64,000 bases of DNA from a virus. Its lineage: Duplodnaviria; Heunggongvirae; Uroviricota; Caudoviricetes. Shown here in pieces: positions 2,790 through 60,842 of this stretch. A program made the translations under genes and the position numbers. Each line of letters begins with the position of its first letter. Position 1 is the first letter of the stretch. The notes below the pieces were generated by a model. That model saw only the letters and a list, made by a program, of their open reading frames with translations. It ran no database searches and was not told where the DNA came from. The stretch lies in IMG/VR virus record IMGVR_UViG_3300029702_000002. One strand, 5' to 3'.

Positions 2790-2906
2790 GTGTTTCTCCT
2801 TGTTGTGATTTGGCCGATGGCGCTATGCGCGTTGGGCTTTCGTTCATTCGTGGCTCTTTCGAGCTGTTAAATGATAGATCAGCACTTACTTATTATCTAT
2901 CAAAAA

Positions 2907-3338
2907 TCAACGGGGAGTAATAAAGCGTTCAGAGCCTAATCGCTCTAATTCAACAATGGCCATCTTCGACGCCTGAACAATCATGTCTCGGCGATGCGAA
3001 AAGGCGGCAACAGCATGTTTGTATATGTCTGCGATGTGCCGTGCTTCATCCAACTTCTGCCGTTTAGATAGATACTGTGGGTTTGTTTTAACCTTAGCGT
3101 CTAGTACAGATTCGTTGAACTTAATGCCGTTCATACTCAAGTTTTTACGCTCTGTGTCGTATAGCTTTGCTTCAACAGCTTCAAGGTTAAGTTTTGCCTC
3201 TGCGACACTTCTTTCTGCATGGGCGAGCTTTGAACCATACTCCATCAACAGGCGAGGTTGCTGACGCCAGACTTCCTCCAGATTGTCGCGGTCGAATTCA
3301 AGATCGGACATGATTTTTTCGTAGATATCTGCACTCAT
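2907..3338 (-). CDS. hypothetical protein, possibly a recombination mediator (UvsY-like size and position)
   Basis: 143 aa, helical/charged; adjacent to SSB and recombinase module; assignment by size and context only. Confidence 0.3.
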   Translation of the reverse strand: MSADIYEKIMSDLEFDRDNLEEVWRQQPRLLMEYGSKLAHAERSVAEAKLNLEAVEAKLYDTERKNLSMNGIKFNESVLDAKVKTNPQYLSKRQKLDEARHIADIYKHAVAAFSHRRDMIVQASKMAIVELERLGSERFITPR

Positions 3339-3467
3339 TTTTGATAGGTTCCAACTTACTTTAGTGTATTTGATTGTATCAAATAAAAAGAGCTTTACTG
3401 CTATGATTAGCGGTAGACAGTATGGGAGCTAAAGGGCAGAATCAGGGCATAAAGCGAACAGAACAAA

Positions 3468-4448
3468 GTGAGAATAAAATCAATGAATAAAGCTAACAAT
3501 CAAGCAAAAGCAGAAAAGCCTGTGCCGACTAAAGAACTGTCCCCACCCCCAAAAGTTAAGACTGCGAGGTCAGCAGCAGAAAAAAATAAAACTGAAGGCA
3601 TGACATATCCGAAGACCAGCGCAGAAGGACACGCTGGTGAGTACTTATTTGCTTATTGGATTTCTCGTTATTTCAAATGGCCTTGTCGACTGCTGGATAT
3701 TGATATGGGGTTGGATGCACAGGTTGAAATCTATGAAAATGAACTTTCTACCGGTATGTTTATTGGCGTTCAGGTAAAAACCACCTCACGCACAATGAGT
3801 AGTAGTCTAGGAGTACAGATCCCCTATAAAAATTTAAAGTATTGGGGGGAATGCGATTTCCCTATAGTGATCGTTTTAATTTGTCTAAACGAAGATAATA
3901 AGCATGAAGAGCCAGATATTTACTGGCGGCATTTAGACAAACAAACCATCGCATCGTTATCAAGTACAGCGGATTACAATAACTCAGGAAGTACATCAGT
4001 AACATTTAACGAAGACCAATATCTGAAATCTCCAAGGGATAGAGAGAAATGGCTTAGATTATGGCTATCTAGTGAAGATCTGAAGATCATTGAACGATGC
4101 GAAGGTATTGAGAGAAACATTACTGCATTAGGGAAATTCTTTGAAGAAACAATTGTGGACGGGGATTTAAAACAGGGACTACCAACTCTTGATTTTTTTC
4201 GTAATTTAAACGATTTGTTGGACTCATATGATGAGGTGGAATTGGCTATTAGAGGTAACAATCGACTAGAGTATCTATCAGAGGAAGTTAAATCACTTAA
4301 AAAATGTCATGAGCGCTATATGCCTAAAATTATGTATGCCTTTGAACAGGCGTGCGAATCAAATAGTGTCATGATGAGTGATTTCGATCCGTATTCCCCT
4401 ATAAATAATAAACTCCATACTATACTAGTTAATAATAGAATTTATTAA
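3468..4448 (+). CDS. PD-(D/E)xK-like putative nuclease (DUF4365-like), accessory gene
   Basis: 326 aa on the opposite strand to its neighbours; visibly AT-rich; candidate catalytic triad in DIDMGLDAQVEIY...GVQVK (D, E, K spacing typical of PD-(D/E)xK); own terminator directly downstream. Confidence 0.55.
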   Translation: MRIKSMNKANNQAKAEKPVPTKELSPPPKVKTARSAAEKNKTEGMTYPKTSAEGHAGEYLFAYWISRYFKWPCRLLDIDMGLDAQVEIYENELSTGMFIGVQVKTTSRTMSSSLGVQIPYKNLKYWGECDFPIVIVLICLNEDNKHEEPDIYWRHLDKQTIASLSSTADYNNSGSTSVTFNEDQYLKSPRDREKWLRLWLSSEDLKIIERCEGIERNITALGKFFEETIVDGDLKQGLPTLDFFRNLNDLLDSYDEVELAIRGNNRLEYLSEEVKSLKKCHERYMPKIMYAFEQACESNSVMMSDFDPYSPINNKLHTILVNNRIY

Positions 4449-4453
4449 CTAAA

Positions 4454-4484
4454 AGGCCCGTTATATAACGGGCCTGTTTATTAT
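4454..4484. terminator. rho-independent terminator hairpin (bidirectional candidate)
   Basis: aggcccg-ttatataa-cgggcct stem-loop followed by gtttattat on the plus strand; reverse complement is followed by TTTT. Lies between the plus-strand island gene and the DnaE 3' end. Confidence 0.6.
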
Positions 4485-4623
4485 ATTAAGCGACCTTCTT
4501 ACCAAAAATGTTGGATAGCGAGACTCTGGTTTGGCACTTCAGCCTGTACTGTCTTACATCGCCAATCTTGTTTACTTCCATAAACTCTTTTCTCTCTGGC
4601 CACCTTCATGGTGTTCTCTTTGT

Positions 4624-7600
4624 TCATTTGCTAATAGTCTCCGCTACCTCTGCAAGAATTGCTTCCAGCTTTTCGCCTTCCTCTGGGCGAAAGTACAAAA
4701 TATTCGGGTTAAATCCGTAGAAAACGGTCACATCCAGCTCCGGCAGATACTCTTTGCGTCCAACCAGGTCGGATGGTTTGCTCTTGTTGTTGAAGAGCGA
4801 CGTCGCCCGGCTGCCACACGTCAGCACATAGGTCGGATGCACCAGATTGATCTCTTCACGTATAAAGTCGGTGAACTGGCCGATCTCGTCTTTGGTGTAG
4901 TCTTTTTCTTTGTCTTTAACCTTCTTGCAAACGCCTGTGACATAGAGATCGCCCATGCGTAAATCTCCAGCCGTCAATAGCTTGGCCTTAAAATCGTCGT
5001 ATCCGTTCTCCATGAAGTAACCGGTTCGAGCATCATTGCCGTTCGCATTGTCCAGAATGATCATGATTTTCGGCTTAATGCCAATGCTGGGGCGGATTAG
5101 TTCATCACCTAAGCCCATTTCAGCCGCCATCCGTGTCATGAGTGCGTTAATTTCAGCCGATCGTTTGGGGTTCATCTCAAACGGACGTGAGGCTTTAACT
5201 GCGTCTATGACAAGGTTTCCCATCAATTCTGCCTGGTCGCGGAGACGCTCTGGATCAGTTGCTGGCAGACTACCTGGCTCGATGGATGCAAACGCACCTA
5301 CTTTTTGCAGTGATTCGCGCACTCGACTATTACAGGCACGTTTCTCGACAGCTTCTTCGAATTGCGCCAGTGACTCGAATTTGCCGCCAACTTTTTCTCG
5401 CGCTCTCATGATGGCTTGGCAGCCATTCTCAGAACACCCCTTCACAGCAGAGAAGGGCGCATACAGAACCTGGCTGCCATCTTCAAGCGTGCGGATCTCG
5501 ATTCGGTTAGATGACACGTTAACGTCTGGTGGCAATACGCGAATACCATAGGTCAGCGCATCTTTAACCAGCCCTTGGTGTTTATCTTCGCCAAGAATAG
5601 TGAGAGCAGCAGCGAAAAACTCTGCGGGATAATGAGTTTTCAACCACATAGATTGATAACTGATTAAAGAATAAGCAACGGAGTGTGATTTATTGAACTG
5701 ATAGGCTCCGTTTTTCTCAAATGCGGTCCAGATCTCCTTCGCTTTCATCTCTGATAGCCCTGGATGTGACGCTGTAACGCGTACTGCGTTTATAGGTAGT
5801 TTTGCGCCGTGCTCAAGTGCCTCTTCGACAGTTTTCAGAGTTCCGTCTTCGCATTTAAAATGTTCCGCACGGTGAATGCGCTGTGTAGTGCCATCTTCCA
5901 GCTCAACGTCTATCCAGCCAGCTTGAGCCTGAACGATGAACTTCTCGCCCATGCTCTTCATTTTTTCCATGTTCTTCTTACCGATTGCGGAACGCACAGC
6001 GTCAGCTTCAGCCATTGTGAAGCCGGCAAGCAATCGAGTCGCGTTCATCGTCTGTTCCTGATAGAGAATCACGCCATTTGTTTCCGCGGTAAGTTCATCA
6101 AGAACGGGGTGTAATGATTCCGGCGTCATAAAGCCTTTGGCGACAGAAACATAGTCATCCAACATGCCTGATTGAATTGGCCCCGGCCGGAAGAGCGCAG
6201 TTGTAGCGACGACCGTTTTAAAGCTCATTGGCTCAATTCCACCACCTAAATCTTTAAGCAGCTTGCGCATTGGGCCTGATTCAAGCTGGAAAACACCTTG
6301 AGTGTACCCAGCAGCAAAACCATCCAGCACCTTGCGATCTTCAAGAGAAATGGCATCAAGATTGATATCTTCACCTGTGTTCTCTTTTATGTAGCGTTTT
6401 GCACTATCGAGCAAATCGAGAGTTGCCAGGCCAAGCACGTCCAGCTTAATTAGGCCCATAGCCTCGCAGTAACGCTTGTCAAATGCGATACAACGCGCGT
6501 CACCACGGCGCTCAACCGGTGTACGTTCTGTCAGAGGAACACCTGCTACGATCATCCCTGCCGCATGTCTACCAAAGCCACGCATAAGGCTTTGTAACTT
6601 GCAGGCTGCATTGAATGCATCAGGATATTTTGTTGCGTATTTGTCGAGACTTGCCAGTTGTTCGCGCAGCTCTTCCAATGGAAGGCTATCATCCTCGACG
6701 TTCTTCAGTTCTTTTGATACCGCCATATCTGCGGACTCCACACCATAAATACGAGCGGTATCACGTAGTGCAGAGGCTGCGCCCAGGTAGGTGAAGTTCG
6801 GAATACCCGCAACGTAATCTTCGCCGTAGCGTTCATTCAGATACTCGATCACCTCATGGCGACGTGCCTGGCTGAAGTCCAAGTCCGCATCCGGCAAGTC
6901 GAGACGCTCAGGGTTGATGAAACGCTCAAACAGAAGACCGTGACGGATTGGGTCGACGTTGGTTATGCCTATGCACCACGCCACCAGAGAACCGGCAGAG
7001 GAACCACGACCAGGCCCAACGGGAATGCCAGTTTCACGACTATGATTCATCAGATCGCGTACCATCAGGAAGTAACCACAAAATCCCAGGCGAGTCAGCG
7101 TGTCCATTTCGTACTTTAGCCGCTCAACATAAACCCTGTTCTCAGAAGCAGGTGGTGTGTAGCCAAACTCTTTTGTGGTAAGACGTTTACGCAGCCCTGC
7201 AACAGCCAGTTTCATAAGCGTTGCAGGCTCGTCGTCTGCCATCTTTGGCAGTGCTGGCGGCAATTCATGCCAGCGCCATGTGCAGGCATCGATAATGGTA
7301 TCCTGCGTTGTTGAGGCCATTGCAGCTGTTACCGGCACATCCATGCGAACGGAGAAGGCTTTAAGCGCCTCAAGGAGATGGCGGCGACCATTGACGGCGT
7401 TATCTCGCTGGTGGGGGATACGCAGACGATGCGGCTGGTCGATTTTGATGTTGTTCGTAACCATGTGCGCAATGTCTTTAATGTCTGCATCGTCGATCGA
7501 TTCGTAATAAGCGGGATAGAACGCCACTGGCTCTATTTTCAATGCGCTGGCGACTTTCATCGCCCGGACGTTAATCTGGTCGTAGAATGGGGTAGGGTGC

Positions 7601-8142: not shown

Positions 8143-8320
8143 GTGTTTTTACCTTTCTGGTTTTTTTGATTTTGTCATTGGGGAAGCCTACGAACTTCCC
8201 ATGCATCGAAATCGCAACTTCTTTTGCTGATTGGTGACAATCGGGCTTGTCTGGACACACCAGACAAGCCTTACCAGTTTCAGAAGCAGCGATAAGAGAG
8301 CCGAAACATCCTTTACGCAC
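8117..8320 (-). CDS. small Cys-rich hypothetical protein (67 aa)
   Basis: ORF track; CLVCPDKPDCH cluster; overlaps the DnaE start by 26 nt. Confidence 0.35.
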   Translation of the reverse strand: MRKGCFGSLIAASETGKACLVCPDKPDCHQSAKEVAISMHGKFVGFPNDKIKKTRKVKTHEGTDGSN

Positions 8321-8322
8321 GA

Positions 8323-9558: not shown

Positions 9559-9653
9559 GCGTTTTTCCTTTGTTTTCTAATGAGCGTTCAACTTCTTATA
9601 TAAATATATCATTATCTATCGTAAGTGGTTACTTATCGTTAAGGCTGTTTTGT

Positions 9654-19533: not shown

Positions 19534-20012
19534 TGTTGTTTTGCCTCCATATGTTGATCGATTTGCTCATGTGTTTTTTTTGTTGTTTCTTCAAGCAACG
19601 CCGCATACACGTCAGTGATCGCTGTTTGTGATGTGGCGCTCTTCTTAACCATGCTATTAATCGTTACACTGTCACGTTTTCGTTTTATAGTTCTGGCTTG
19701 TTTATTCCGTTCTTCAACCTCCTTAATGAGCGCGGTCATATCTTCGAAATACAGAGATTCTCCTTTACGAATCTCTTCAACCATCATTTTTAACGCCTTG
19801 CATTTGCCTGCTTTGATAGCGGTTGCGCACGACTGGAATGAAGTTCGAGGAAGACGGTTTTCTTTGAAGGCAAGAATGGTGTGCTGGCAAACGGAGTAGC
19901 TGCAATATGCCGACTCACCGTTTATCTTTACTTCCTCACAACGAAGTGAATAACCATTATTTCCTGAAATAGAGGGGATTTTTGACAAATCAGCTTTCAC
20001 AACTACCGCCAT
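19530..20012 (-). CDS. hypothetical protein (160 aa)
   Basis: ORF track; coupled to the ligase gene (4-nt overlap); Cys-containing N-terminal half, basic C-terminal half. Confidence 0.45.
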   Translation of the reverse strand: MAVVVKADLSKIPSISGNNGYSLRCEEVKINGESAYCSYSVCQHTILAFKENRLPRTSFQSCATAIKAGKCKALKMMVEEIRKGESLYFEDMTALIKEVEERNKQARTIKRKRDSVTINSMVKKSATSQTAITDVYAALLEETTKKTHEQIDQHMEAKQQ

Positions 20013-20067
20013 AAATAATCTTGTACTTACCTATCGTTATTTGCGTAAAAAACGACGCGCGGAGAGA

Positions 20068-20844
20068 TTACCAACTTCCCCAGCTAATCATCTTGCGCTG
20101 ATCGCTTTCTAAGCGATAAGGGGCAAGAAGCTCTGTGACATGATTGGTGGCGTATGATTTAGCCTCTTGCTTAATCATCGGTAATTCGTTAGCAATCCTG
20201 ACCATCTTCCCAGCAAATTCCGCCATTACGCCATCACAAGCCTTCCCCGCATCAACAACGATATGCACAAGATCCAACTGGCTTTTGCACATATCCCAAA
20301 GAGACGCGTATTCACTCTCTCTGATTACATTTACGGCACTATTAGCCCCTTTATTAATCAAAACTTCCAACAGATTTTTCGGGGTAACGAAATCTGCTTT
20401 CAGAGATAATGTCTTTTCACCACTTATCGAACGCAAGTACTCTTCGTAGTTATTCTTCATCAAACCGCTGCTGCGCATTGCTAGAACTGCTTCTTGAATG
20501 GCCGCTTCAATAGTTTCGTCGTTTGAAAGACAAAAAACGGTATTTGTGTAGATCACTCTGCCATCAAGCCATGCTCCAACCTGCACTTTAAGACTGAGCG
20601 GGTTTTCTTTGCTAATAAAAACAACTAATGCAGAACGCCGTGCACAAGAAGGTTCGCCCCATACGTGTAACTCAACTTTCAGATAAGGCAACCCTGGTAG
20701 CGGGATCTCGTCCATACGAGCAGCGATATGATTCATTGCTGTATTGACGGCCTTTCCAATGATGTCTAGTCGACTGCCCTCGCTGATTTCTAAACCTGTT
20801 TTATCAATGATGTCACAGGCCAATTTCTGAATTTCGTCTTTCAT
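20068..20844 (-). CDS. hypothetical protein (258 aa)
   Basis: ORF track; no motif recognised. Confidence 0.5.
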   Translation of the reverse strand: MKDEIQKLACDIIDKTGLEISEGSRLDIIGKAVNTAMNHIAARMDEIPLPGLPYLKVELHVWGEPSCARRSALVVFISKENPLSLKVQVGAWLDGRVIYTNTVFCLSNDETIEAAIQEAVLAMRSSGLMKNNYEEYLRSISGEKTLSLKADFVTPKNLLEVLINKGANSAVNVIRESEYASLWDMCKSQLDLVHIVVDAGKACDGVMAEFAGKMVRIANELPMIKQEAKSYATNHVTELLAPYRLESDQRKMISWGSW

Positions 20845-20886
20845 ACCAACTCCTAGCTAACAGATGAAAGTATTCTTACAAAAAAC

Positions 20887-20906
20887 TAAGTATGTATCTA
20901 CTTATC
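20887..20906. promoter_or_regulatory. intergenic motif TAAGTA-N6-TACTTATC upstream of gene 20068..20844
   Basis: Motif-family member about 40-60 nt upstream of the minus-strand start at 20844. Confidence 0.4.
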
Positions 20907-20969
20907 ATTTTAGGCGCAATAGTTCCCTATACGAAGATGCCGGGCTTATAGTCTGCCCGGCATTCACCA

Positions 20970-24006: not shown

Positions 24007-24015
24007 GCTTATTTT

Positions 24016-25356: not shown

Positions 25357-25399
25357 GTGCTTTCCTTTGTTTTTTAAACAAATTGTTTTCTAGTATTAG

Positions 25400-26149
25400 T
25401 TAATTAGATAGGGGATCAATAAACCGCCGTGCTTCTTCCAGTTCTTCTGGAAAGTGGGCGGAAATAAGGCGCTCTGGAACGATTTCCATTAGCCAGATAG
25501 CGGAGAAAATTGCGCGTATGCGCTTGCTGCGAGGTATGGTGCGCAAACGCTCCAGAATCCACTCAAAATAGCTTTCCTGAATCGGGTTGAACTGCATGTC
25601 TCCCATATGCTTAAAGCTAACAAGAGAGTCATCCAGACGGGTTGTTGCGCGTCTGGCTAATTTCTCTTCAAATATCTCAATCAGTTCTGGCTGCCACAAA
25701 TGCTGTGGGCGCGGCAGCTTGTCCCACAGCCGTCGTGCAGCTGCGGAAAGAACGGTGGAGATAAAGTAGTCGTATGAGCAGCAATAGCGATCCGCAAACT
25801 GGCGTGCTTTCCATAGCGACGTTTTGTTGGCAGTCGACAACTCCTGATAAGGCAGGCGTTTTAACCCGGTGGTGAACGGAGCTGTTTCAAAGTGTTCGCG
25901 ACCGTGCGTCAGCATGATATTTGAGTACTGACGTTTGTATGCCTCCGTAAAAAGACAGGTGGCCATGAGAGGATGCATGTCGCGGTAATCAAACCACTTC
26001 GTCTCGAAGAGTTCAGCCTCGTCTTTACAGCGCGACAAACCAATGTTTTCAGCGACCCACTTGTCCATAACAGCGGTATTCCACTCTGTCATGAAGTCGT
26101 ACTGGTCGTTGTCGATGGTATCGAAAAAGATTTGGCTCATGTGGCTCAC
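25400..26149 (-). CDS. hypothetical protein (249 aa)
   Basis: ORF track; AGGTGA RBS; no motif recognised; first gene of the helicase/primase transcription unit. Confidence 0.5.
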   Translation of the reverse strand: MSHMSQIFFDTIDNDQYDFMTEWNTAVMDKWVAENIGLSRCKDEAELFETKWFDYRDMHPLMATCLFTEAYKRQYSNIMLTHGREHFETAPFTTGLKRLPYQELSTANKTSLWKARQFADRYCCSYDYFISTVLSAAARRLWDKLPRPQHLWQPELIEIFEEKLARRATTRLDDSLVSFKHMGDMQFNPIQESYFEWILERLRTIPRSKRIRAIFSAIWLMEIVPERLISAHFPEELEEARRFIDPLSN

Positions 26150-26153
26150 CTGG

Positions 26154-26173
26154 TAGGTAGTTACTTACTTATC
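26154..26173. promoter_or_regulatory. intergenic motif TAGGTAGTTACTTACTTATC upstream of gene 25400..26149
   Basis: Motif-family member 5-25 nt upstream of the minus-strand start codon. Confidence 0.4.
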
Positions 26174-26256
26174 ACAATGAGCGGATGATAGCGACTGGTG
26201 GCAGTTTTTGGAAGTGGAAACGGAAGGGAGTTGTTCTGGTGGTGTCTTTTAAAAGA

Positions 26257-26311
26257 CCTGCTTCCGTATATATTTAATAAGTTACTTATTATTTATATAT
26301 ACAGAAGCAGG
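26257..26311. repeat. 55-bp palindromic element, copy 1 of 2
   Basis: cctgcttccgtatatatttaataagttacttattatttatatatacagaagcagg; identical to 57553-57607; outer 17-bp arms are near-perfect inverted repeats around an AT-rich core containing AATAAGTtACTTATT. Confidence 0.85.
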
Positions 26312-26422
26312 CATAACTTGTCGTCTTAGACGCCCAGAAGCTCTACACTTTGAGCCTGTTAAATTGATTAAAAACTTATGTGTAAAATAGAACGCATTAG
26401 TCAGTAGCAAAGAGATGCAATA

Positions 26423-30849: not shown

Positions 30850-30900
30850 GAAAAGTCAAATCGGGATGGCGGATTTATATCACACTTCTCCTTTCAATTA

Positions 30901-30920
30901 TAGGTATATACTTACCTATC
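30901..30920. promoter_or_regulatory. intergenic palindromic motif TAGGTATATACTTACCTATC
   Basis: Motif-family member upstream of minus-strand gene 30514..30849. Confidence 0.4.
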
Positions 30921-31039
30921 TATGCATATGCCGTTTAACGGCTGTTCAAATTCGTATCTAGTAACTCACTAATATATCCCTATGATTGCGGCTGTGAGAT
31001 CGCATTTTAAACCTCACAGCCATATAAATAATGTCTAAA

Positions 31040-35077: not shown

Positions 35078-35121
35078 GTTGAATATGCTCCTTGATTTGG
35101 CGGGTTATCCTTGCCCGCCAT

Positions 35122-35135
35122 TAAGTAAATACTTA
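35122..35135. promoter_or_regulatory. intergenic motif TAAGTAAATACTTA upstream of the tail fiber gene
   Basis: Motif-family member about 45 nt upstream of the start at 35077. Confidence 0.4.
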
Positions 35136-35170
35136 CCTATTTTTACCGATATAAAATTTTTTTTCCACCA

Positions 35171-47735: not shown

Positions 47736-48518
47736 TTAACCTGCGGAGTTAATCGTTACTGACTTAGTAGCCTTCTTAGAACCGCTATTGCTGGTGAAGG
47801 AGATGTTTGCAGTACCCTGCGCCACACCGCGCACAAGACCCGTTTGATCTACCGTGGCCTTTTCCTGGTCTTCGGATTCCCAAACACCGGTTTTGTCTGC
47901 GGCATCAGCTGGAGTGATTTCGGCTGTCAGTTGCACAGTTTCTCCAGCTTTTACGGTTGGAGATTCCGGTTTGATCGACACGGTTTTTACCGGTTTAGGG
48001 CCGCTCATTCTTCCCAGAACGCCTTCGTCATCAGGGTACGCACTGAACTGAACAGAGAACACACGAACATCATCAGACTGGTAAGTCATGGTGAAGTTAC
48101 CTGCGGTCGCAGCTTTCGGGATGGTCAGAACGTAGTCGGTAGTGTCCTGCGGAGTCAGAACCAGCTCTTTGGCTACGTCGATCAGGTTGACACCCTGTGC
48201 GGAAGTGATGGTCACAGCGTTGTCGTCTTCGTTCAGAGTAGACCCCGGCATCAGATCGACCATATTTTTCAACACAGACTCGGCCAGCGGCGCAGTAATG
48301 GTAATGTTACGACCCTGCACCAGCTCGGACATAATTGTCTGCCCGTGCTGGTCGACAGTGACTTTCAGCGTTTCAGTGGCTACTTCAACCTGAACACCAC
48401 CTTTGGTGTAACCCAAATCCACACCACCAAACGACACCTTACAGGCACCAAGTTTGATGTTTTTTACATGGGTATTAGACATTGATGGAAAACTCCTTTT
48501 TCCGTTAATTCTACGCAT
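47736..48518 (-). CDS. major tail tube protein with C-terminal Ig-like (Big_2) domain (lambda gpV-like)
   Basis: 260 aa; C-terminal Ig-like segment (TVKAGETVQLTAEITPADAADKTGVWESEDQEKATVDQTGLVRGVAQGTANISFTS); position upstream of G/GT/TMP. Confidence 0.6.
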   Translation of the reverse strand: MRRINGKRSFPSMSNTHVKNIKLGACKVSFGGVDLGYTKGGVQVEVATETLKVTVDQHGQTIMSELVQGRNITITAPLAESVLKNMVDLMPGSTLNEDDNAVTITSAQGVNLIDVAKELVLTPQDTTDYVLTIPKAATAGNFTMTYQSDDVRVFSVQFSAYPDDEGVLGRMSGPKPVKTVSIKPESPTVKAGETVQLTAEITPADAADKTGVWESEDQEKATVDQTGLVRGVAQGTANISFTSNSGSKKATKSVTINSAG

Positions 48519-48532
48519 TCATTGCGCTAATA

Positions 48533-48548
48533 GTAAGTATATACTTAC
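48533..48548. promoter_or_regulatory. perfect 16-bp palindrome GTAAGTATATACTTAC upstream of the major tail gene
   Basis: Exact palindrome 15-30 nt upstream of the minus-strand start at 48518; motif-family member. Confidence 0.5.
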
Positions 48549-48556
48549 CGATTAAC

Positions 48557-51097: not shown

Positions 51098-51141
51098 AAC
51101 GCATTCTCTCTACATGGGCGGCTTTCGCCGCCCAATATTGA

Positions 51142-52062: not shown

Positions 52063-52074
52063 TTCTCGCTCCTA

Positions 52075-52101
52075 CAAAAAGGGTGGGCGTATAGCCCACC
52101 C
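52075..52101 (-). terminator. rho-independent terminator downstream of the major capsid gene
   Basis: gggtgggc-tatac-gcccaccc hairpin on the minus strand followed by TTTTTG; strong candidate attenuator after the most highly expressed structural gene. Confidence 0.65.
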
Positions 52102-52135
52102 TTTAACATAGATAACTACTTATCTACTACACTGA

Positions 52136-53011: not shown

Positions 53012-53036
53012 CTATCAATTCCCTTTGATTTAGATG

Positions 53037-53924: not shown

Positions 53925-53945
53925 AAAAATTCCTTTTGTTACTTA

Positions 53946-55520
53946 TCACTCGTTCTCTTGAGTAGATGAGTCCCCATTCCCTCGGGGTTGATCTTGCCCG
54001 CTTTCTTGGGCTGCACCACGATCATAAGTAAGTACTGACTTATTTTCAAGGGTATTTAGATCATTTTTTGGAGGAAAATTCAAGAGATCTTTATCAAATT
54101 CCTTTTTCATCGCCTCAGTAATGTTCGGGAAAATCTTCTCAATAAGCATTTCCATCTGGTGACGACGTACAGAGTCCGGTGCCTGAAGTAATGACAGTTT
54201 CTCGGCAACAGAAAATTCATCAGTAAGGCCACGAATATCGAAACTTTCTGGATACGCAATTAAAGAGTGGTCTTCGTCCAGATCTACCCCCATCCATTTC
54301 GCAACCAGTAGCATGATTTGGCGTTCAGCCCTTTCCAGACGCTCTGCTTTTGTGACAAGCAAGCTATTTACACGCTGGAAGTCATACATTTTTGCGGCAC
54401 CAGATGAATTATCGATTCCCTGTGCGTTGTCCTGCTTCGTTCGCTCACCAGCTACACCAACTGAATGGTAGATTTCGTTAATCACCGTCTTAATCGTAGT
54501 GATGATCATCTGAGCTTGTTTCGGGTCTGGTGACAGATAAAACGGCTGGTTTCCACCTTCAGAATCGTAGGTGAAGACTCGCTTTGTGCCCATTTCAAGC
54601 ACTTTAGTGTGGTTTTCATCACCAGGTAAAAGCGACTGTACCGGTATAGCCAACTGGCTAAATGTCTGATCCTGAATAATGGCATCAAGGTTTGACAGAT
54701 AGTTTGCAACCGCACGATCAAGATAAGCGATATCATCGATCAACGATGGGCTGAAATACGGTGATTCACTTTCTCCAATACAATCAACAGGAAACACAGG
54801 AACTACGCCGAGATTATGCTCACCGCTATCCTCTAAAATAACTTTTGCCTGACGGCGACCTGCTCCACCAGCGCCCTTCTTCACTTCCTCACGGAACAGA
54901 TACCACTCGTTTTGTGTCCACAGACGATAACGTTGGTATTCCTGACCTGTAGAAGTAAAAGGATCTGCGTCATCACGAGCGACTTCCACAATTAACGCCC
55001 ACAACATATTCCCGTCGTCGTCCCATGCCACATCCAGCATTTGCTGAGGTGAAATCCAGTAGGCGTAGGCGCGAGCATCTTTCTTTTTCTCGTCAGCTAC
55101 TGACTCAACATCACCACTCATCGTGCTATCGACAACAACCCATATGCGACCGTAAATAGACGACTGCAAATCAATAGCGGCCATAAATGAGTCAATAGAG
55201 GCATTCTGGCGAGTCGCACGTTTCCAGAAATTGCGGATCTGCTCTGGTGCCTCTTCGATATTTCTATGAATGTCTTCTTTAAAGAGATATTTGTTGATGA
55301 GGTTTACCACCTCACGAGTGTGGTTGAAGCGATAAGCACGCTCAACTCGCTCCTTAAACTCCTGATCTCCCTCTTTAAAGTAACGAAAGATATTGTCTGT
55401 AAACCAACCACGCCCGCCAGCGTAAGTGCTGGCGAGGAAGTCCCAATGTTCTTTTTTCTTTTCGTATTCCGGGTGGCGTCGCGCCACCAGATCCTTAATT
55501 TGTTTGTCGTTCAATTCCAT
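53946..55520 (-). CDS. portal protein
   Basis: 524 aa; directly downstream of terminase large subunit; acidic C-terminus; assignment by position and size. Confidence 0.6.
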   Translation of the reverse strand: MELNDKQIKDLVARRHPEYEKKKEHWDFLASTYAGGRGWFTDNIFRYFKEGDQEFKERVERAYRFNHTREVVNLINKYLFKEDIHRNIEEAPEQIRNFWKRATRQNASIDSFMAAIDLQSSIYGRIWVVVDSTMSGDVESVADEKKKDARAYAYWISPQQMLDVAWDDDGNMLWALIVEVARDDADPFTSTGQEYQRYRLWTQNEWYLFREEVKKGAGGAGRRQAKVILEDSGEHNLGVVPVFPVDCIGESESPYFSPSLIDDIAYLDRAVANYLSNLDAIIQDQTFSQLAIPVQSLLPGDENHTKVLEMGTKRVFTYDSEGGNQPFYLSPDPKQAQMIITTIKTVINEIYHSVGVAGERTKQDNAQGIDNSSGAAKMYDFQRVNSLLVTKAERLERAERQIMLLVAKWMGVDLDEDHSLIAYPESFDIRGLTDEFSVAEKLSLLQAPDSVRRHQMEMLIEKIFPNITEAMKKEFDKDLLNFPPKNDLNTLENKSVLTYDRGAAQESGQDQPRGNGDSSTQENE

Positions 55521-55533
55521 TTGAATAACCTTA

Positions 55534-55551
55534 GATAATTACTTACCTATC
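55534..55551. promoter_or_regulatory. intergenic motif GATAATTACTTACCTATC upstream of the portal gene
   Basis: Motif-family member 14-30 nt upstream of the minus-strand start at 55520. Confidence 0.4.
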
Positions 55552-56803
55552 GAGAACCACCAAGAATAACACGGTTTTTGACTGGATACCTACGATGTAC
55601 TGGATAGCCCAATGCGTCTGCACTATGCTCAATGCCACCTGTCTTATCCATATCTCGTGTTCCAGGCTTGTAGATGACTTTTTCCAGTGAATCAATCAAA
55701 TGCTTGCACTTCGGATCGATATACAACCGGATATCTCCAGATGCGGTCATCAGCATTCGGTTAACAGCATTAACACGATCCGCAATTGGCGGGTGCTTTT
55801 TCGAATAATCGACACGTAAGAATCCCTTCTCTTTGAATATGTCGACGTCAGACTCCCCGCGAGCATGTTGGCGATAAGCACCTGCCGGATCTGGAAATAC
55901 CGTTATCTGTGATTTCCAGCGCCAGAAGCGTCTCTCAAGCTCATCACAAACCTCTGCCGTGTTAGAGGAAAAGAGCACCAATTCATCAATTGCCCATAGC
56001 TCACCATTTGGCTGAGGTTGCAAAATTACTGAAGACATCGGGTCAATGTTGAAGTCCTGCCCTACCCATATAGGCAACCGAGGGTTGAACTGAAGCGGTT
56101 TTACATGCACGTTACGATCGAACGGGTAGTAAACGCGCCCGGACATGTTCTCAAAGCTCGCCAGGTACTCCTGAGCGAACGATTTCGGGTCCATATCGTT
56201 CTTAGCAGCTTCAATTTCCGCCGTAGGCACAAACGGAGAATCGGCAGTTACAAACTGCCAGCTCTTCCACTGTCCCTTTCTTTGCAGCTCTACGTTCTGG
56301 CCTATAGTCCACAGTTTGTGAAATTCCGAGAAACCTTTTGGCGTACCAATGATCAGTGCACCGCCGCGTGTCGATGAAAGAGTAGGTCGTAACACCTTGT
56401 ACCAGGTGTCAGCCTTCATATCCTGAAATTCATCAAGCACTACAAAATGCAACGCTACGCCGCGCAGAGTGTCAGGCTTATCAGCACCTTTGAGGGCGAT
56501 CTCCGAACCGTTCTTCAACACGATTGTCATCGTGGTGTCGTTCTTTTTCCTAACCCACTTACGAGGCAGAACTTCCTGTAGATCGTCCCACAAAATCTGG
56601 CGAGCCATCTGGTAAGTAGGAGCGACATACCAGACCCTTTGCTTTTTTTCCTTTGCCGCCGCACGAATAATAGTGGAGATCGACAACCGGGATTTTCCCC
56701 AGCGTCGACCAGCACAAACAACTTTAAATCGATGCGGAGACTGGAAGACTTTCATCTGTCCAGAATGCAGTTGCACAAGACTGAGCGAGGACGGGATTGC
56801 CAT
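55547..56803 (-). CDS. terminase large subunit
   Basis: 418 aa; N-terminal Walker A-like VVCAGRRWGKSRLS; Walker B-like HFVVLDEFQD; start overlaps the small-subunit stop. Confidence 0.7.
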   Translation of the reverse strand: MAIPSSLSLVQLHSGQMKVFQSPHRFKVVCAGRRWGKSRLSISTIIRAAAKEKKQRVWYVAPTYQMARQILWDDLQEVLPRKWVRKKNDTTMTIVLKNGSEIALKGADKPDTLRGVALHFVVLDEFQDMKADTWYKVLRPTLSSTRGGALIIGTPKGFSEFHKLWTIGQNVELQRKGQWKSWQFVTADSPFVPTAEIEAAKNDMDPKSFAQEYLASFENMSGRVYYPFDRNVHVKPLQFNPRLPIWVGQDFNIDPMSSVILQPQPNGELWAIDELVLFSSNTAEVCDELERRFWRWKSQITVFPDPAGAYRQHARGESDVDIFKEKGFLRVDYSKKHPPIADRVNAVNRMLMTASGDIRLYIDPKCKHLIDSLEKVIYKPGTRDMDKTGGIEHSADALGYPVHRRYPVKNRVILGGSR

Positions 56804-57435
56804 TATTCGTCCTCCCCTTCACTTCCATCATCTGTCGCATCAAATTCGCTTAGAGCTTCTTCTTCCAACGTCTCAAGCAATTCGTCATCGATGATTTCAG
56901 GCTCGTCGTCTTCCTGACGTAATTTCGCCACCTGGGAAGGCGTAAGCTCACCAAATACCAGGTTCGGAATTTCTTCCTCGTCATTTTCCGCATGATCCAT
57001 GCCCAATGCTTTGGACGAAACTTCAAAGCATTTTGCAAGGGTATTACTGGCTCTCTGTAAGCTCTTGAGAGAATCCTCAATCGCCCCTAAAGGCTTACCC
57101 TCACGTTTGGCCGTAGTGACTTCGACCATCACCATCTGCCCCAACGCATACGCCCAGCCGTCATAACGTGTACGACGTTCTTCTATCTTTTCCGCACGGG
57201 CTTTAGCGCGAAGCTCTGCGTCAGATTTAAGAGACTCACGAACCATCTTCCCAACAGAGTCCGCGCCTTTCTCTAATCCTCGCTTTTTGAAATGTCTGGA
57301 GAGTGTTTCACGACGAATGCCGTACTCTTCCTCCAGCTTTGAGAGTGTATATTCGCCTGACGTCCATTTGGCTTCAGCTTCGGCCCACTCCGCTGGTGTC
57401 AGGCGAGTTTTTACCTCGTCTTTTTCGACCGTCAT
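56803..57435 (-). CDS. terminase small subunit (DNA-binding)
   Basis: 210 aa; N-terminal HTH-like region (LSKLEEEYGIRRETLSRHFKKRG); acidic C-terminus; coupled to the large subunit. Confidence 0.5.
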   Translation of the reverse strand: MTVEKDEVKTRLTPAEWAEAEAKWTSGEYTLSKLEEEYGIRRETLSRHFKKRGLEKGADSVGKMVRESLKSDAELRAKARAEKIEERRTRYDGWAYALGQMVMVEVTTAKREGKPLGAIEDSLKSLQRASNTLAKCFEVSSKALGMDHAENDEEEIPNLVFGELTPSQVAKLRQEDDEPEIIDDELLETLEEEALSEFDATDDGSEGEDE

Positions 57436-57552
57436 AGATCCCTCTAAAACACACAGAGCGCGTCCATGCGCTCTAAAACAACTTGTTTACTGCATTTTCT
57501 AACCAACTTGTTTTCTGGGTTGTTTAATTAGGTCTGGGCATGTCTTATTAAG

Positions 57553-57607
57553 CCTGCTTCCGTATATATTTAATAAGTTACTTATTATTTATATATACAG
57601 AAGCAGG
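57553..57607. repeat. 55-bp palindromic element, copy 2 of 2
   Basis: Identical to 26257-26311; lies 118 bp upstream of the terminase small-subunit start. Confidence 0.85.
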
Positions 57608-57631
57608 TCTTTAAATAAGCTCCCAGACCGA

Positions 57632-57898
57632 TTACATCACCAGTAACTTCGCTTTGGCTCGACCTAAAGTGGTTAACCCAAGAGTTCGGCGGTGATAGCG
57701 ATTGTCACTGCGTTGGCGCGTATGCCCTTTCTCCACAAGCCCCTTTTTTATCAGAGCGCGAATTGAGAACTGGATACTTTGCTTGGTTGTCTTGTACGGC
57801 AAAACTTCAAGCAATTCGTCCAGATCAAGTAGATGACCTCGCTCATAACCGAGATTGAGCGTTTTGATGATGTCCTTTTGTTTATCGGTTAACGTCAT
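57632..57898 (-). CDS. hypothetical protein (88 aa)
   Basis: ORF track; basic C-terminus. Confidence 0.4.
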   Translation of the reverse strand: MTLTDKQKDIIKTLNLGYERGHLLDLDELLEVLPYKTTKQSIQFSIRALIKKGLVEKGHTRQRSDNRYHRRTLGLTTLGRAKAKLLVM

Positions 57899-57907
57899 GG
57901 CAAATCC

Positions 57908-58798
57908 TTATGCCGGTAAAGCAATTTCTAACGGTTTATCCAAAGGTTGTTTGTCGAATGCCAGCAGTGGCAGCGTGTCAGGCAGTCGACGACCAAAGTC
58001 AGGGTTTCGATACACCCCATACAACGGAGACGTAAAGCTCAGGTTGTGAATGTCCTTGAGCAACTTCACAATGCTGGCCTCGTCCACCAGACTGTCGGCA
58101 ATGTCCTGAATCGTCGTGCCACGATTCCGCCCAGCTTTTGCCAGGGAACTGTTCTTATGGTAGTCCGCCACCAGATCACGCAGTGCACGGCGACGACGAG
58201 ACTCGCTCATTGCGAACAACTCTTTGACGATCGCCTCGTTATCACCCGGGTCGGAACGAAAATGGCGCTGGAATACACGCAGTGCACTTTCATAGCTCTT
58301 CGGTCGCTCAGGGCGGATGAACTTAAACCCTGCTTTCATGGCGAAGGGATTGTATTTGCTCATCGAGGACTGGATCTCAATGATTGGCCGGTCATGCATC
58401 CTGCTAACCAGGTTAATCATTCGATAAGAGACGCCTACGCCACGATACTGAGTATCCACAACTGAGCGACTGATCACCGCAAAGTTGTTATTCACGTACC
58501 GACCCCAGTACTGGTTAGCCACGGTGGTATTAGTGGTTGGTTTCAACTTAGGAAACATGCGGTGGCGAGGTGCCAACAGTAGTTTCGGGTAAGCCATAAC
58601 CACGACGCCCACCAGACGGTCATCAAGTTCGCAGCGATAGTAAGTTGGCGCGAAAGGTTTGCCGTCTGTTTTGTAGTGAAGCGACTTAAGAGCGTGCCAG
58701 TCCTCTACAGTTCCCTTTGTAACAGTCATTCGCTCCAGAAAGTCCAGATGACGCGGAAACTCTTCAGGGCGGTAGCGTTTAATGATGATGTCCGTCAT
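57908..58798 (-). CDS. GNAT-like acetyltransferase-fold protein with C-terminal extension
   Basis: 296 aa; GNAT motif A/B-like AVISRSVVDTQYRGVGVSYRMINLV and PFAMKAGFKFI; last gene of a four-gene coupled operon. Confidence 0.4.
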   Translation of the reverse strand: MTDIIIKRYRPEEFPRHLDFLERMTVTKGTVEDWHALKSLHYKTDGKPFAPTYYRCELDDRLVGVVVMAYPKLLLAPRHRMFPKLKPTTNTTVANQYWGRYVNNNFAVISRSVVDTQYRGVGVSYRMINLVSRMHDRPIIEIQSSMSKYNPFAMKAGFKFIRPERPKSYESALRVFQRHFRSDPGDNEAIVKELFAMSESRRRRALRDLVADYHKNSSLAKAGRNRGTTIQDIADSLVDEASIVKLLKDIHNLSFTSPLYGVYRNPDFGRRLPDTLPLLAFDKQPLDKPLEIALPA

Positions 58799-59460
58799 GA
58801 ATGGACCTCATCATGACTACCATTGTGATATTCCACCTTCACGCGTTCTTTGTAGTGCTTGGTGATCTGCATATCCGGGCGCAGCGCGTTCTTCAGGTCT
58901 TCGTGAGTCGTCGCCACCATTACCGTCGCACCAACCTTTCGCGCGGCACGCTGGAGGTTAGACGCCACAACCTGAGCGGTTACACGGTCGAGAACAGCGC
59001 CGAACTCGTCAGCAGCCCACACTTTAGCGCCTGACTCAATCAGTTTGGCAATCTTGAGACGATATTTCTGGCCGTCTGACATTTCAGAAGGCTTGCGAAC
59101 AAACAGATATGCATCGTTCAGACCAGCCATAGATAACAACCCAAGCGCATCACTGGTCGTTTTGCCCAACTGATCGATGACGTTAACCTCATTATCGAAG
59201 GTAAAATCATCGATGGAGGCTACAGACAGCCCTTCATCCTTCATCTGTCGTTGCAACTCGCGCAGCACAACGGATTTGCCGGAACCGGATTGGCCGGTGA
59301 TGTACACCACATCGCCCTGCTTCACTTCCAGCTCCAGATTGTCGTAAAGCGTCCACTCTTTTTCGTCCAGGCCAAGCCCGAACGACTCAGCGATTTCCAA
59401 CGTGCGCGTGGTTTTATTTACGCGTGTCTGAAACGATATGTTGATGATGTATTTGCTCAT
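58795..59460 (-). CDS. ABC-type ATPase (stand-alone)
   Basis: 221 aa; Walker A GQSGSGKS; ABC-signature-like MSDGQKYRL; Walker B WAADEFGAVLD; H-loop-like ATTHED. Confidence 0.65.
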   Translation of the reverse strand: MSKYIINISFQTRVNKTTRTLEIAESFGLGLDEKEWTLYDNLELEVKQGDVVYITGQSGSGKSVVLRELQRQMKDEGLSVASIDDFTFDNEVNVIDQLGKTTSDALGLLSMAGLNDAYLFVRKPSEMSDGQKYRLKIAKLIESGAKVWAADEFGAVLDRVTAQVVASNLQRAARKVGATVMVATTHEDLKNALRPDMQITKHYKERVKVEYHNGSHDEVHS

Positions 59461-60158
59461 GCAGCCATCTCCCCGGAAGAGATCTTCTCCGCATATGCCA
59501 CAAATGCGTCTACCCCGCTTTCTCCCGTCATTTCTTCCATATGGGCAAGCAAATCACCAACAACAATGGCAGAGCCAGCAGGGAGCGTTTTAAAGCCCAA
59601 TACGTCGACAACACGTACTTCTTCCGCTGCAACTTCACGACTGATCTCGGTGTGTTCATCCTTCTGTCGTTTAGTTTCTTCGCCAAGATCGATAACTAGC
59701 GAGTCGGTGTCCATTTCTTCTGTCATACTGCCAACGAGAACATTCAACTCACGCTCTTCAAAGCCGAAAACCTCGATATCGTCCAGAACAAGCGACTCAA
59801 GCTCTTTCTGTAGCTTAATTGCATCGTAATCAATGCTGGCAAGTCGGTTATCTTCAAGGCGCTTCGCACGAACCTCGTCATCACTGAGATCATCGCGAAC
59901 AATAACCGGTACGCGCTCAAGTCCAGCAAAAATTGCAGCCTCACGGCGGCCGTGGCCAGTAATAATTACGTCGTTCTTATCGACCGTAATTGGCTGGTCA
60001 AATCCGCGCTTTTTAATGGCTGCGGCCAGATCTCGGATCTGCTGTTCATCATGCTTTTTGGCATTCATCTCATAGGGAATAAGATCTGCCGGGTCGCGAT
60101 ATACGATTTCAAACTTTTTGGTCATTACATACGCTCCTTGTAGTAGTCGACCAGCCAC
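59457..60158 (-). CDS. ParB-like nuclease-domain protein
   Basis: 233 aa; ParB/Srx-fold motif ITGHGRREAAIFAGLERVPVIV (compare ParB GERRxRA). Confidence 0.65.
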   Translation of the reverse strand: MAGRLLQGAYVMTKKFEIVYRDPADLIPYEMNAKKHDEQQIRDLAAAIKKRGFDQPITVDKNDVIITGHGRREAAIFAGLERVPVIVRDDLSDDEVRAKRLEDNRLASIDYDAIKLQKELESLVLDDIEVFGFEERELNVLVGSMTEEMDTDSLVIDLGEETKRQKDEHTEISREVAAEEVRVVDVLGFKTLPAGSAIVVGDLLAHMEEMTGESGVDAFVAYAEKISSGEMAA

Positions 60159-60823
60159 ACCAGAGCCTCACCAGCGTTCTCCATTTCATTACCGGTGTTA
60201 ATAGCCTGCTCTTTGATGATGTTTTTTATGGTTTCTGCAACACGATCTGACGCATCGAAAGTTACTTTGAAGCGCATGGTCTGATGTTCCGCACCCACAC
60301 GTTCGGTTTTCTCTCGTTTGTCGGTATCGACAGGCTCATCACTACCACGAGACAACGCCTCCAGTGCTTCAAGGTCGATTGCCGCCTCTTTTGCTAAAAC
60401 CATCGAGATTTCGTCGTCATACGGGGCGATTTCAGACAGTTGATAGTCAAGTTCTGACTGAATTTCTTCAATGAAGCGTTGCAATGCGATTTGGTCGTCT
60501 TCACCGTATCGCTCGTTGTCCACCAGTGACATCTGTTTAGCTACGACATCGCTAATTTTGCCCACAGAAAGCACCGGAACCGTTGAAATTCCTTGCTCAA
60601 TAGCAGCACGCCAGCGATGTTCGCCGCCGAGGATTTCAAAAAATCCATCTTCAAGTTCACGAGCCAAAATTGGCTTAAAAAAGCCCAATTTTTCGATAGA
60701 ACCTTTCAGTTTTTCAAAATTCTGCGCACCAACCGAATTGGTGTTCCAGGTATTCGGGCGAAGGTTGGCAACATCAACCTGCAAAATCGTGATTTTTACA
60801 TCCATTTTATTGCTACAATCCAC
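60125..60823 (-). CDS. ParB-like nuclease-domain protein (second paralogue)
   Basis: 232 aa; ILGGEHRWRAAIEQGISTVPV; first gene of the four-gene operon. Confidence 0.65.
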   Translation of the reverse strand: MDCSNKMDVKITILQVDVANLRPNTWNTNSVGAQNFEKLKGSIEKLGFFKPILARELEDGFFEILGGEHRWRAAIEQGISTVPVLSVGKISDVVAKQMSLVDNERYGEDDQIALQRFIEEIQSELDYQLSEIAPYDDEISMVLAKEAAIDLEALEALSRGSDEPVDTDKREKTERVGAEHQTMRFKVTFDASDRVAETIKNIIKEQAINTGNEMENAGEALVWLVDYYKERM

Positions 60824-60842
60824 TAAGTAATCACTTACTTAT
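60824..60842. promoter_or_regulatory. intergenic motif TAAGTAATCACTTACTTAT in a divergent promoter region
   Basis: Motif-family member immediately upstream of the ParB-like gene start, between divergent operons. Confidence 0.4.

Follow-up and report, generated by a model that had tools for sequence, protein, structure and literature searches.

The operators of the C1 repressor of the phage-plasmid P1 are asymmetric 17-mers (ATTGCTCTAATAAATTT) that lie dispersed in many copies, and C1 itself is not known to be an XRE-type protein; the controller (C) proteins of restriction-modification systems, in turn, are small XRE dimers binding long palindromic operators. P1 is organized into many transcription units, and its Lpa protein acts at the 11 late promoters, each of which contains a 9-bp inverted repeat (PMC10695390). 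More generally, late gene expression is under positive control in all well-studied phages (PMC10695390). Here, we analyze a palindromic motif recurring in a 64,000-nucleotide stretch of viral DNA (IMG/VR record IMGVR_UViG_3300029702_000002; hereafter, the window, taken at its full length). Since the window shares 96-98% identity with Escherichia phage Cyrano (OV696614) and with the phage-plasmid records CMS-2020a, ~80% with Salmonella phage SSU5 and ~78% with Klebsiella phage-plasmids, we assign it to the SSU5-like phage-plasmids, which number roughly 660 in PLSDB and occur commonly in E. coli, Salmonella, Klebsiella, Enterobacter, Cronobacter and Citrobacter. Its genes lie mostly on the minus strand and form modules for replication/recombination, lysis, tail, head and packaging. 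In the papers searched, we found neither the motif nor an SSU5 repressor or operator described, and nothing on how the SSU5-like group passes from plasmid to phage life and back. We propose that the motif serves as operator for a two-fold symmetric repressor encoded by the phage, most likely an XRE-family protein whose gene lies in the window. Taken as a whole, we find this mechanism modestly probable, and its operator part, taken alone, somewhat more so.

The motif is repeated far above chance. Allowing at most one mismatch, TACTTAYCTATC has 7 matches in the window against 0.29 expected, a number reached in none of 100 shuffles (0/100), and TACTTA is the top enriched intergenic hexamer, with 23 of its 26 plus-strand copies located in the intergenic fraction (~8% of the window, 10-bp margins counted). 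A position weight matrix built by iteration and trained on Cyrano, which is near-identical to the window, was refined to a 26-bp palindrome with the halves ATGATAAGTAAGT and ACTTACTTATCAT, i.e., ATGATA(A/G)GTAAGT followed by ACTTAC(C/T)TATCAT. Its core is conserved at positions 4-23 and exhibits a 4-nt periodicity (GATA-GGTA-AGTA), with TA at positions 5-6, 9-10, 13-14, 17-18 and 21-22. In the window, 18 sites reach 15 bits (0.03 expected under Markov-1 nulls) and 14 reach 18 bits (0 expected), and the site centers are intergenic in 16/18 cases (binomial p=5e-16). The same threshold of 15 bits yields 28 sites in Cyrano (0.07 expected) and 24 in SSU5 (0 expected), the latter, at ~80% identity, being a more independent check than the window; Klebsiella phage pJN2-26 has 26 such sites, or 31 at 12 bits and above, and some of them are perfect 26-bp palindromes. 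There are thus ~25-30 sites per genome, and their positions are orthologous in Cyrano, SSU5 and pJN2-26 despite diverged flanks. TACTTAYC is biased in the window (12 plus-strand vs 3 minus-strand copies), whereas its orientations are balanced in SSU5 (9 vs 11), and we therefore dropped the idea that this strand bias reflects a directional motif. Such a sequence, repeated well beyond expectation at promoters and 5' ends of genes, is what a repressor regulon would present.

These results substantiate the central observation of an earlier note on this DNA, which had described related palindromes with variable spacers upstream of many minus-strand genes and suggested a phage-specific promoter or operator. 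Twelve of the 15 instances listed there are strong sites, including the one near 2885, which had been called a weaker look-alike and is actually among the best. The other three fared less well: 53941-50 is an 8-mer half-site of less than 9 bits, 9621-37 is weak (11.1 bits) but has a 16.5-bit neighbor at 9597-9622, and the center of a "55-bp element", at 16.3 bits, is borderline and forms part of a separate structure, a long hairpin. The sites are also better described as a single palindrome of fixed length, the inner positions of which are often degenerate, than as half-sites with variable spacers. Our scan added the strong sites 15136-15161 and 54021-54046 and the weaker sites 12274-12299 and 10945-10970 (Table 1).

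We then considered whether the motif is read as DNA or as RNA, tabulating the 13 mirror-position pairs across all strong sites. The two arms depart from the consensus independently (position 7/20, R/Y: G:C 5, A:T 7, G:T 6, A:C 4), G:U-type and A:C-type mismatches on the sense strand number 33 vs 24 in Cyrano and 21 vs 24 in SSU5, and both arms are about equally conserved as sequence. Because the arms vary independently, with no G:U excess, and are both conserved as sequence, the motif points to double-stranded DNA read by a two-fold symmetric protein; two-fold symmetry combined with independent half-site variation is the pattern of a repressor operator. A structured RNA (terminator, RNase III site or translational operator) was rejected on the grounds that there are no compensatory changes and no wobble bias, that single palindromes fold only weakly as RNA (-7.6 to -10.5 kcal/mol) and that no Rfam family matches any site, tRNAs being the only Rfam matches.

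A narrower version of the RNA explanation, in which the motif would act in mRNA by forming a small hairpin directly 5' of the ribosome-binding site (RBS), to be processed there or bound by a translational repressor, draws on the location of the sites 0-60 nt before start codons on the coding strand, on the fact that the palindromes do fold, and on the presence of a candidate binder. The latter is an FljA-family protein conserved in Cyrano, SSU5, pJN2-26 and the Cronobacter sp. JZ38 plasmid; FljA of Salmonella represses the translation of fliC mRNA and was reported to act post-transcriptionally (PMC2652032). However, the weakness of the hairpins, the lack of compensatory variation, a G:U count not above the A:C count on the sense strand and the conservation of sequence in both arms, which an RNA hairpin does not need, all speak against it. 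Moreover, the E. coli fliC leader contains no motif match (best score 5.4 bits), and no FljA homolog was found in the 10 kb upstream of TerL in the motif-bearing loci L083-L089, which give a limited view of those genomes. The symmetric DNA conservation is likewise unlike that expected for an RNA binder; hence, the FljA-family protein was rejected as the binder and action in mRNA, which we consider very improbable, was retained as a minor rival. The protein itself (CYRAN_114; Cyrano OV696614 100780-101301, minus strand, just past the right end of the window; SSU5_121; pJN226_0046; JZ38 76638-77165) matches PF03614 ("repressor of phase-1 flagellin") over its full length (E=1e-80) and is 57-78% identical across SSU5-like elements of four genera. 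Its C-terminal part gives an Hfq-like match that stays below threshold, and two Sm-like repeats are apparent by eye. It may serve to shut off host flagellin or act on phage mRNAs.

The relation of the sites to promoters also speaks for an operator. Three near-consensus sigma-70 promoters carry the palindrome in their spacer: TTGAAA-17-TATGAT at 54049-54021 within the portal gene, which is the clearest case, TTGAAA-17-TATCAT ahead of CYRAN_56, directly after a terminator, and TTGATA-17-TAACAT/TATCAT ahead of nrdA. A protein centered near -20 on a promoter with a 17-bp spacer and hexamers of 5/6 + 5/6 could hardly do anything but repress. Across 11 lineages, the in-portal promoter keeps TTG and TAT-AT invariant, its spacer is the lineage's own motif variant and its flanks diverge, and the C-terminal residues of the portal protein vary with the operator type (ENKSVLTYD, ENRLSTTYD or DNRYVNTYD by codon reading; window 53946-54100). 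Since the hexamers stay, the spacer tracks the motif and the portal residues change, selection at this site evidently acts on DNA, with the regulatory element dictating the protein sequence. Elsewhere, the -10 of the best promoter match starts at motif position 21, 24, 10-15 or 29-38; as promoters, 10/28 Cyrano sites score above the 95th percentile of random windows in the sense orientation vs 3/28 in antisense. The sites at 55528, 26150 and 20012 fill tiny gaps, touching the Shine-Dalgarno sequence or the start codon. Given that promoter elements and activator sites need fixed geometry, this variable geometry, together with intrinsically good promoters, argues for repression, by occlusion or as a roadblock, and not for a promoter element or an activator site. 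Thus, while the operator half of the earlier suggestion gains from the symmetric double-stranded motif, its overlap with sigma-70-like sequences at variable offsets, its lineage variation and its covariation with a helix-turn-helix (HTH) protein (see below), the phage-specific promoter half finds no support: the distance to start codons and to the -10 is not fixed, some sites abut or overlap the RBS or start codon, and others have ordinary -35/-10 hexamers for the host RNA polymerase. The caution raised there over the site at 52111, which precedes a terminator, was well placed, as this site follows the stop codon of the major capsid gene and precedes that gene's intrinsic terminator.

An activator could nevertheless be envisaged. 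In this scheme, a phage protein bound to the palindrome near -20 would replace the -35 and recruit host RNA polymerase, as Lpa does in P1; a good -35 is missing from most sites, the outer right arm TATCAT is similar to a -10 hexamer and keeps a constant position within the motif, sites stand ahead of many late genes in the structural block, and P1, also a phage-plasmid, uses palindrome-containing promoters (PMC10695390). On the other hand, there is no directional -10 signal, as the T at motif position 26 is hardly more conserved than its mirror position 1 (15/23 vs 12/23), and several sites have a near-consensus -35/-10 pair with a 17-bp spacer that should fire unaided. A transcription start 7 nt past TATCAT would fall after the Shine-Dalgarno sequence or within the coding sequence at several sites, early replication genes are preceded by sites too, and SSU5 expresses these genes without the XRE gene, provided that the XRE protein is the binder. 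We therefore rate an activator-dependent promoter as rather improbable. A T7-like or T4 late-like promoter, read by an RNA polymerase or sigma factor of the phage itself, was rejected, as the motif is symmetric and no such gene is named in the Cyrano, SSU5 and pJN2-26 annotations, the hypothetical proteins of which were not all profiled.

In the repressor model that we prefer, one dimer would bind per 26-bp palindrome, and the sites would overlap the sigma-70-type promoter core or the first transcribed bases of nearly every lytic unit, gating replication/recombination, nucleotide metabolism, tRNAs, head, tail and lysis. In the plasmid prophage state, the bound repressor would occlude RNA polymerase, and at sites without a recognizable promoter it would block read-through; once the repressor is lost, all lytic units would open together. 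Negative autoregulation would come from a weaker operator, reduced to the core, that closely follows the -10 of the XRE gene's own promoter. Lytic genes of all classes have sites ahead of them. Sites precede the genes for the single-stranded DNA-binding protein (SSB) and ligase, the helicase-primase block, the AAA/CobS-like gene and the tRNA cluster and, outside the window, nrdA, thyX and a methyltransferase gene; they also precede the head gene downstream of portal, the gene after capsid, CYRAN_12, tail gene L, the fiber gene, holin, portal and the ParB-like operon, the ParB-like gene having a site ahead of it in every lineage examined. No sites were found at genes for plasmid maintenance or expressed in lysogeny (ParA, RepA, toxin-antitoxin pairs) in the genomes compared.

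Variant lineages, collected as IMG/VR loci anchored on the large terminase, have sites at the same places with altered inner positions. Type II, with the halves TAGGTAG-N-T and A-N-CTACCTA, occurs in the L075 group and in the Cronobacter sp. JZ38 plasmid NZ_CP017663, where 18 sites are found genome-wide and position 11 is G in 30/36 half-sites vs 5/48 in Cyrano (p=7e-12). Loci L083-L089 have the variant TAGGTAT-(AT-rich 6)-ATACCTA, and the E. coli element L094 (GCA_050572525.1) has TATG-type half-sites (TATGTATGTA; position 7 is T in 5/14 vs 1/48, p=0.0016). Because the motif differs by lineage and two different types are both found in E. coli, the binder is, on this comparison, encoded by the element and is not a host factor. 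With a view to more examples of the variants, IMG/VR was scanned with exact patterns of the type III and TATG-type motifs, but only known sites or random matches came up, and no close complete TATG-type plasmid was found in PLSDB or among complete E. coli genomes.

Among the proteins with DNA-binding character (the XRE HTH protein, the winged-helix-like CYRAN_37 and CYRAN_123, the ribbon-helix-helix (RHH)-like CYRAN_117, two ParB-N-domain proteins and the FljA-family protein), the XRE protein appears to be the best candidate binder, an identification that we consider evenly poised. It matches Pfam HTH_19 at 19.7 bits, under the cut-off of 30.2, and a PHROG annotated as "transcriptional regulator"; its AlphaFold2 model (pLDDT 80) has C-proteins, HigA, SinR, Stl, the 434 repressor and a Salmonella phage repressor as its nearest folds, with weak Foldseek matches (E about 1e-2, none at E<=0.001). 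The predicted fold is thus the XRE/Cro-C1 HTH of lambdoid-type repressors, as far as this model and these weak matches go. The helix GYKN(A/P)NNLSLIKSGK is near-invariant over homologs of 55-100% identity, and all such genomes examined have the type I motif. In contrast, the helix GYENANNLSNIKTGR goes with the type II motif in nine loci, and GYKYQNQVSFIKSGK is found in a TATG-type genome, in a protein (P0032) that is 75-76% identical to the type I proteins and has 5 changes within ~10 helix residues (KYQNQVSF). The helix therefore differs in both sampled motif-variant lineages with a readable XRE gene. The XRE gene promoter (TTTACA, 12251-56, and TAATAT, 12273-78, with a 16-bp spacer) is followed by the core operator GGTAAG(C/T)ACTTACC at about -5 to +9, in the same layout in the window, Cyrano and pJN2-26, and this is probably an autoregulatory site. 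In an E. coli LF82 (Cyrano) lysogen, the XRE gene is transcribed, and it was annotated as a putative master repressor (PMC9928086).

Neither the integrase gene nor the XRE repressor-like gene, both present in Cyrano, pJN2-26, JZ38 and the window, is found in the type phage SSU5 (NC_018843 42596-42761 against window 11860-13810), although it keeps all operator sites. SSU5 may be a natural, virulent derivative devoid of a repressor. Provided that the XRE protein is the binder, this gene content suggests that lytic expression does not need it, as predicted for a repressor. Divergent from the XRE gene lies a small gene of 70 aa (11861-12073, minus strand; intergenic span 12073-12325), a homolog of CYRAN_46 with 44-66% identity among type I and TATG-type genomes, at the place where cro lies in lambdoid phages. 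It may be a second partner in the switch.

The remaining candidates were less convincing. CYRAN_123 was rejected since its predicted recognition helix is identical across lineages with different motifs, CYRAN_37 as it is absent from type II and TATG-type loci, and CYRAN_117 as its N-terminal DNA-contacting strand varies inside type I; CYRAN_98 has only an S24 peptidase domain, UmuD-like in our own reading. For the small proteins, neither PHROGs nor Pfam suggested a function. The two tandem ParB-N-domain proteins (59457-60823, minus strand; CYRAN_119/120) are paralogs of ~30% identity at the head of a conserved operon; ABC-type ATPase genes and the gene of a winged-helix protein come next, and the operon stops right ahead of the small terminase gene. 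Dispersed palindromes are used by RK2 KorB and N15 SopB, and the motif could serve chiefly in something other than promoter repression, binding either a ParB/KorB-like protein (partition, compaction or silencing) or the small winged-helix protein upstream of the small terminase gene. The two ParB-N-domain proteins are core genes, with a site before their operon in all lineages examined, and CYRAN_123 is likewise conserved in all lineages. Nevertheless, the recognition helix predicted for CYRAN_123 is unchanged where the motif has changed, the ParB-like proteins have no HTH domain match in Pfam, the sites are tied to gene starts and promoter hexamers instead of being randomly spread, and it is the XRE helix that covaries with the motif. 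We thus regard this explanation as improbable.

We infer protein binding, the role of the XRE protein as binder and the repressive effect from these patterns, and several observations weigh against the XRE repressor model. Direct action of a prophage repressor on late structural genes would be unusual. Many sites have no convincing -35 (in the window, 55528, 20012, 52105 and 35118), and several lie on the RBS or start codon within what seems to be an uninterrupted late operon, in which a classical promoter-operator is hard to make out. The covariation amounts to only two independent helix changes, in lineages in which other genes differ as well. In L094, the operator at the XRE promoter (locus 9951-9976) stays type-I-like (AGGTAAATACTTACC) though the other sites are of TATG type; in the type II JZ38 plasmid (22291-22552), no palindrome follows the -10 of the XRE gene, and the small divergent gene of the CYRAN_46 type is unrecognizable. 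Finally, two alignment-based scans did not recover an XRE homolog in L083-L089, which have the third motif variant, and the homolog may have been missed there. The JZ38 plasmid also has isolated type-I-like half-sites (ACTTACTTATC, ATAAGTAAG) upstream of its XRE gene.

Table 1. Sites and associated features in the window. Scores are in bits from the 26-bp matrix; orthologous positions are coordinates in Cyrano, SSU5 and pJN2-26 (pJN).
Position	Strand	Feature	Score (bits)	Context	Orthologous positions
2871..2896		Operator site	26.8	81 nt upstream of gp32-like SSB gene (1761-2789, minus); TAGATA-17-TATCAT promoter-like match, -10 at motif positions 21-26	Cyrano 52656, SSU5 52172, pJN 99978
9597..9639		Two overlapping weak, degenerate sites	16.5 + 11.1	Between cobT-like and AAA/CobS-like genes	Weak in Cyrano and SSU5 too
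10945..10970		Weak site	16.0	Within cobT-like gene	Cyrano 43929, SSU5 43658, pJN 91929
12274..12299		Core-only operator GGTAAGCACTTACC (12280-12293)		Directly 3' of the -10 of the XRE gene promoter	
12325..12711	+	Gene for XRE-family HTH protein, 128 aa		Homolog of Cyrano CYRAN_45, "putative repressor"	
15136..15161		Operator site	21.9	Divergent region between glutaredoxin gene (14825-15070, minus) and 302-aa open reading frame (15244-16152, plus)	
17530..17555		Operator site, the best in the window	29.8	Upstream (minus sense) of tRNA-Asn/Thr/Ser cluster; overlaps TTTACT-17-TAAGAT	Cyrano 38249, SSU5 41770, pJN 83363
20012..20037		Operator site	18.1	Left half alone well conserved; right end on start codon of 160-aa gene before DNA ligase gene	
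20883..20908		Operator site	22.2	38 nt upstream of 258-aa gene (20068-20844, minus)	
26150..26175		Operator site	23.4	Abuts RBS/start of first gene of helicase-primase block (25400-26149, minus)	
30897..30922		Operator site	26.9	Upstream of holin/lysis genes; TATAAT at motif positions 21-26	
35118..35143		Operator site	24.1	Between tail J-like and tail-fiber genes; GC-rich hairpin follows	
42037..42062		Operator site	20.3	Between minor tail genes M and L; TGGATA-17-TATCAT match; hairpin 42030-42008 follows	
48530..48555		Operator site	22.9	Upstream of 260-aa tail gene 47736-48518 (Cyrano CYRAN_12, "tail protein with Ig-like domain"); overlaps TTGAAT-18-TATACT (promoter match 11.6 bits)	
52105..52130		Operator site	20.9	Between stop codon of major capsid gene and intrinsic terminator (52101-52085)	
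54021..54049	-	Near-consensus sigma-70 promoter, TTGAAA (54049-44)-17-TATGAT (54026-21)	28.7 (operator 54021-54046)	Operator fills spacer and -10; within 3' end of portal gene, 96 nt upstream of gene preceding major capsid gene	
55528..55553		Operator site	23.2	Fills 26-nt gap between terminase large subunit and portal genes; overlaps terminase stop codon and portal Shine-Dalgarno sequence	
60820..60845		Operator site	20.7	Divergent region between ParB-like operon (minus) and UvsW-like helicase gene (plus)	

Several further features adjoin the sites. GC-rich hairpins lie 3-8 nt downstream of several operators (window 52085-52101, 42008-42030 and ~35090-35117; Cyrano 67910-67930), and a transcript starting ~7 nt past the -10-like end of the operator would begin in the hairpin or at its foot. 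Read-through would thus be terminated at these places, and operator-initiated transcripts might escape termination or gain a stabilizing 5' stem. The "55-bp element" is a separate feature, a long, near-perfect AT-rich hairpin with GC-rich feet (CCTGCTTCTGTATATATAAATAATAAGTAACTTATTAAATATATACGGAAGCAGG) that folds at -31 to -34 kcal/mol (z about -8). Copies sit where modules meet, ahead of the replication block, behind the methyltransferase gene and ahead of the small terminase gene, at 26256-26312 and 57551-57607 in the window, 31176, 78096 and 108354 in Cyrano, 33470 and 78316 in SSU5, and 15282 and 74855 in pJN2-26. In gene sense, the first window copy is followed by a T-rich tract (UCUUUUAAAAG) and the second by a less T-rich one (CUUAAUAAG); the element looks like a strong terminator or another kind of boundary element. 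By its appearance, a variable cargo spot lies beside one operator: the window has the 302-aa open reading frame there (15244-16152, plus strand), and Cyrano has a different, 184-aa gene, CYRAN_43 (40268-40822), which is expressed 723-fold over background in the lysogen (PMC9928086).

The motif provides a testable map of the lytic transcription units of these elements and a concrete candidate for their master repressor and its operator, and the helix/operator types are sequence markers for probable immunity groups. A bolder extension is that a single small XRE repressor directly gates ~25-30 host-type promoters, with head, tail and lysis genes among those controlled, in a "flat" lytic program that lacks a dedicated late activator or antiterminator, and that the helix/operator variants (types I, II, TATG and AT-spacer) correspond to heteroimmunity groups; we offer this tentatively and think it unlikely. 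If true, these groups would decide which of the widespread, often resistance-carrying plasmid-phages coexist or superinfect; phage-plasmids as a class often carry resistance genes (PMC9600943). Late structural genes repressed directly at ordinary sigma-70 promoters would run counter to the view that late genes are positively controlled in all well-studied phages (PMC10695390). The regulatory logic itself would be conventional, but we found no account of it for this group, which is widespread and of clinical relevance.

Functionally, the closest known system is P1 C1, in that a single repressor of a phage-plasmid would act at many single operators spread over a genome of ~100 kb with many small transcription units instead of at one immunity region. 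Here, however, the operator is a 26-bp palindrome of unrelated sequence, the candidate protein is a small XRE HTH protein, and the sites also precede head, tail and lysis genes, which are Lpa-dependent in P1; no C1-like product is named in the annotations examined, which sets the motif apart from the P1 C1 operator family. By analogy, the SSU5-like motif most likely works like that of P1 C1 but is not homologous to it. The Lpa promoters of P1 resemble the present ones in having a palindrome inside a phage-plasmid promoter, repeated ahead of many operons (PMC10695390), and differ in that the hexamer offset varies here, some sites have a good -35 and early genes are included, so that, judged by the sites and with no search made for an Lpa homolog, they do not form an Lpa-type set. 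With the lambdoid cI/Cro switch, our candidate shares the XRE fold, palindromic operators, an operator at the repressor's own promoter, a small divergent gene and a joint change of helix and operator, as in heteroimmune phages. Lambdoid operators, though, are 14-18 bp long and clustered in OL/OR at two early promoters, with late genes under positive control by Q, whereas we find ~25-30 single, dispersed 26-bp sites, late genes included, with no tandem OL/OR-like cluster but one core site beside the XRE gene, and an XRE protein without an S24 peptidase domain. LexA/SOS and RK2 KorA/KorB likewise use one palindromic box of graded quality at variable positions in many promoters, but they involve other protein families and sequences, and the regulon here would be a viral lytic program. 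C proteins (C.BclI, C.AhdI and C.Esp1396I) are the closest solved folds to the XRE model (target-normalized TM-score ~0.7), albeit with a Foldseek E of about 1e-2, 19-24% identity and another biological context, restriction-modification. Set against these systems, the motif most likely represents a dispersed regulon of palindromic, XRE-type operators that extends over the whole lytic program of SSU5-like phage-plasmids.

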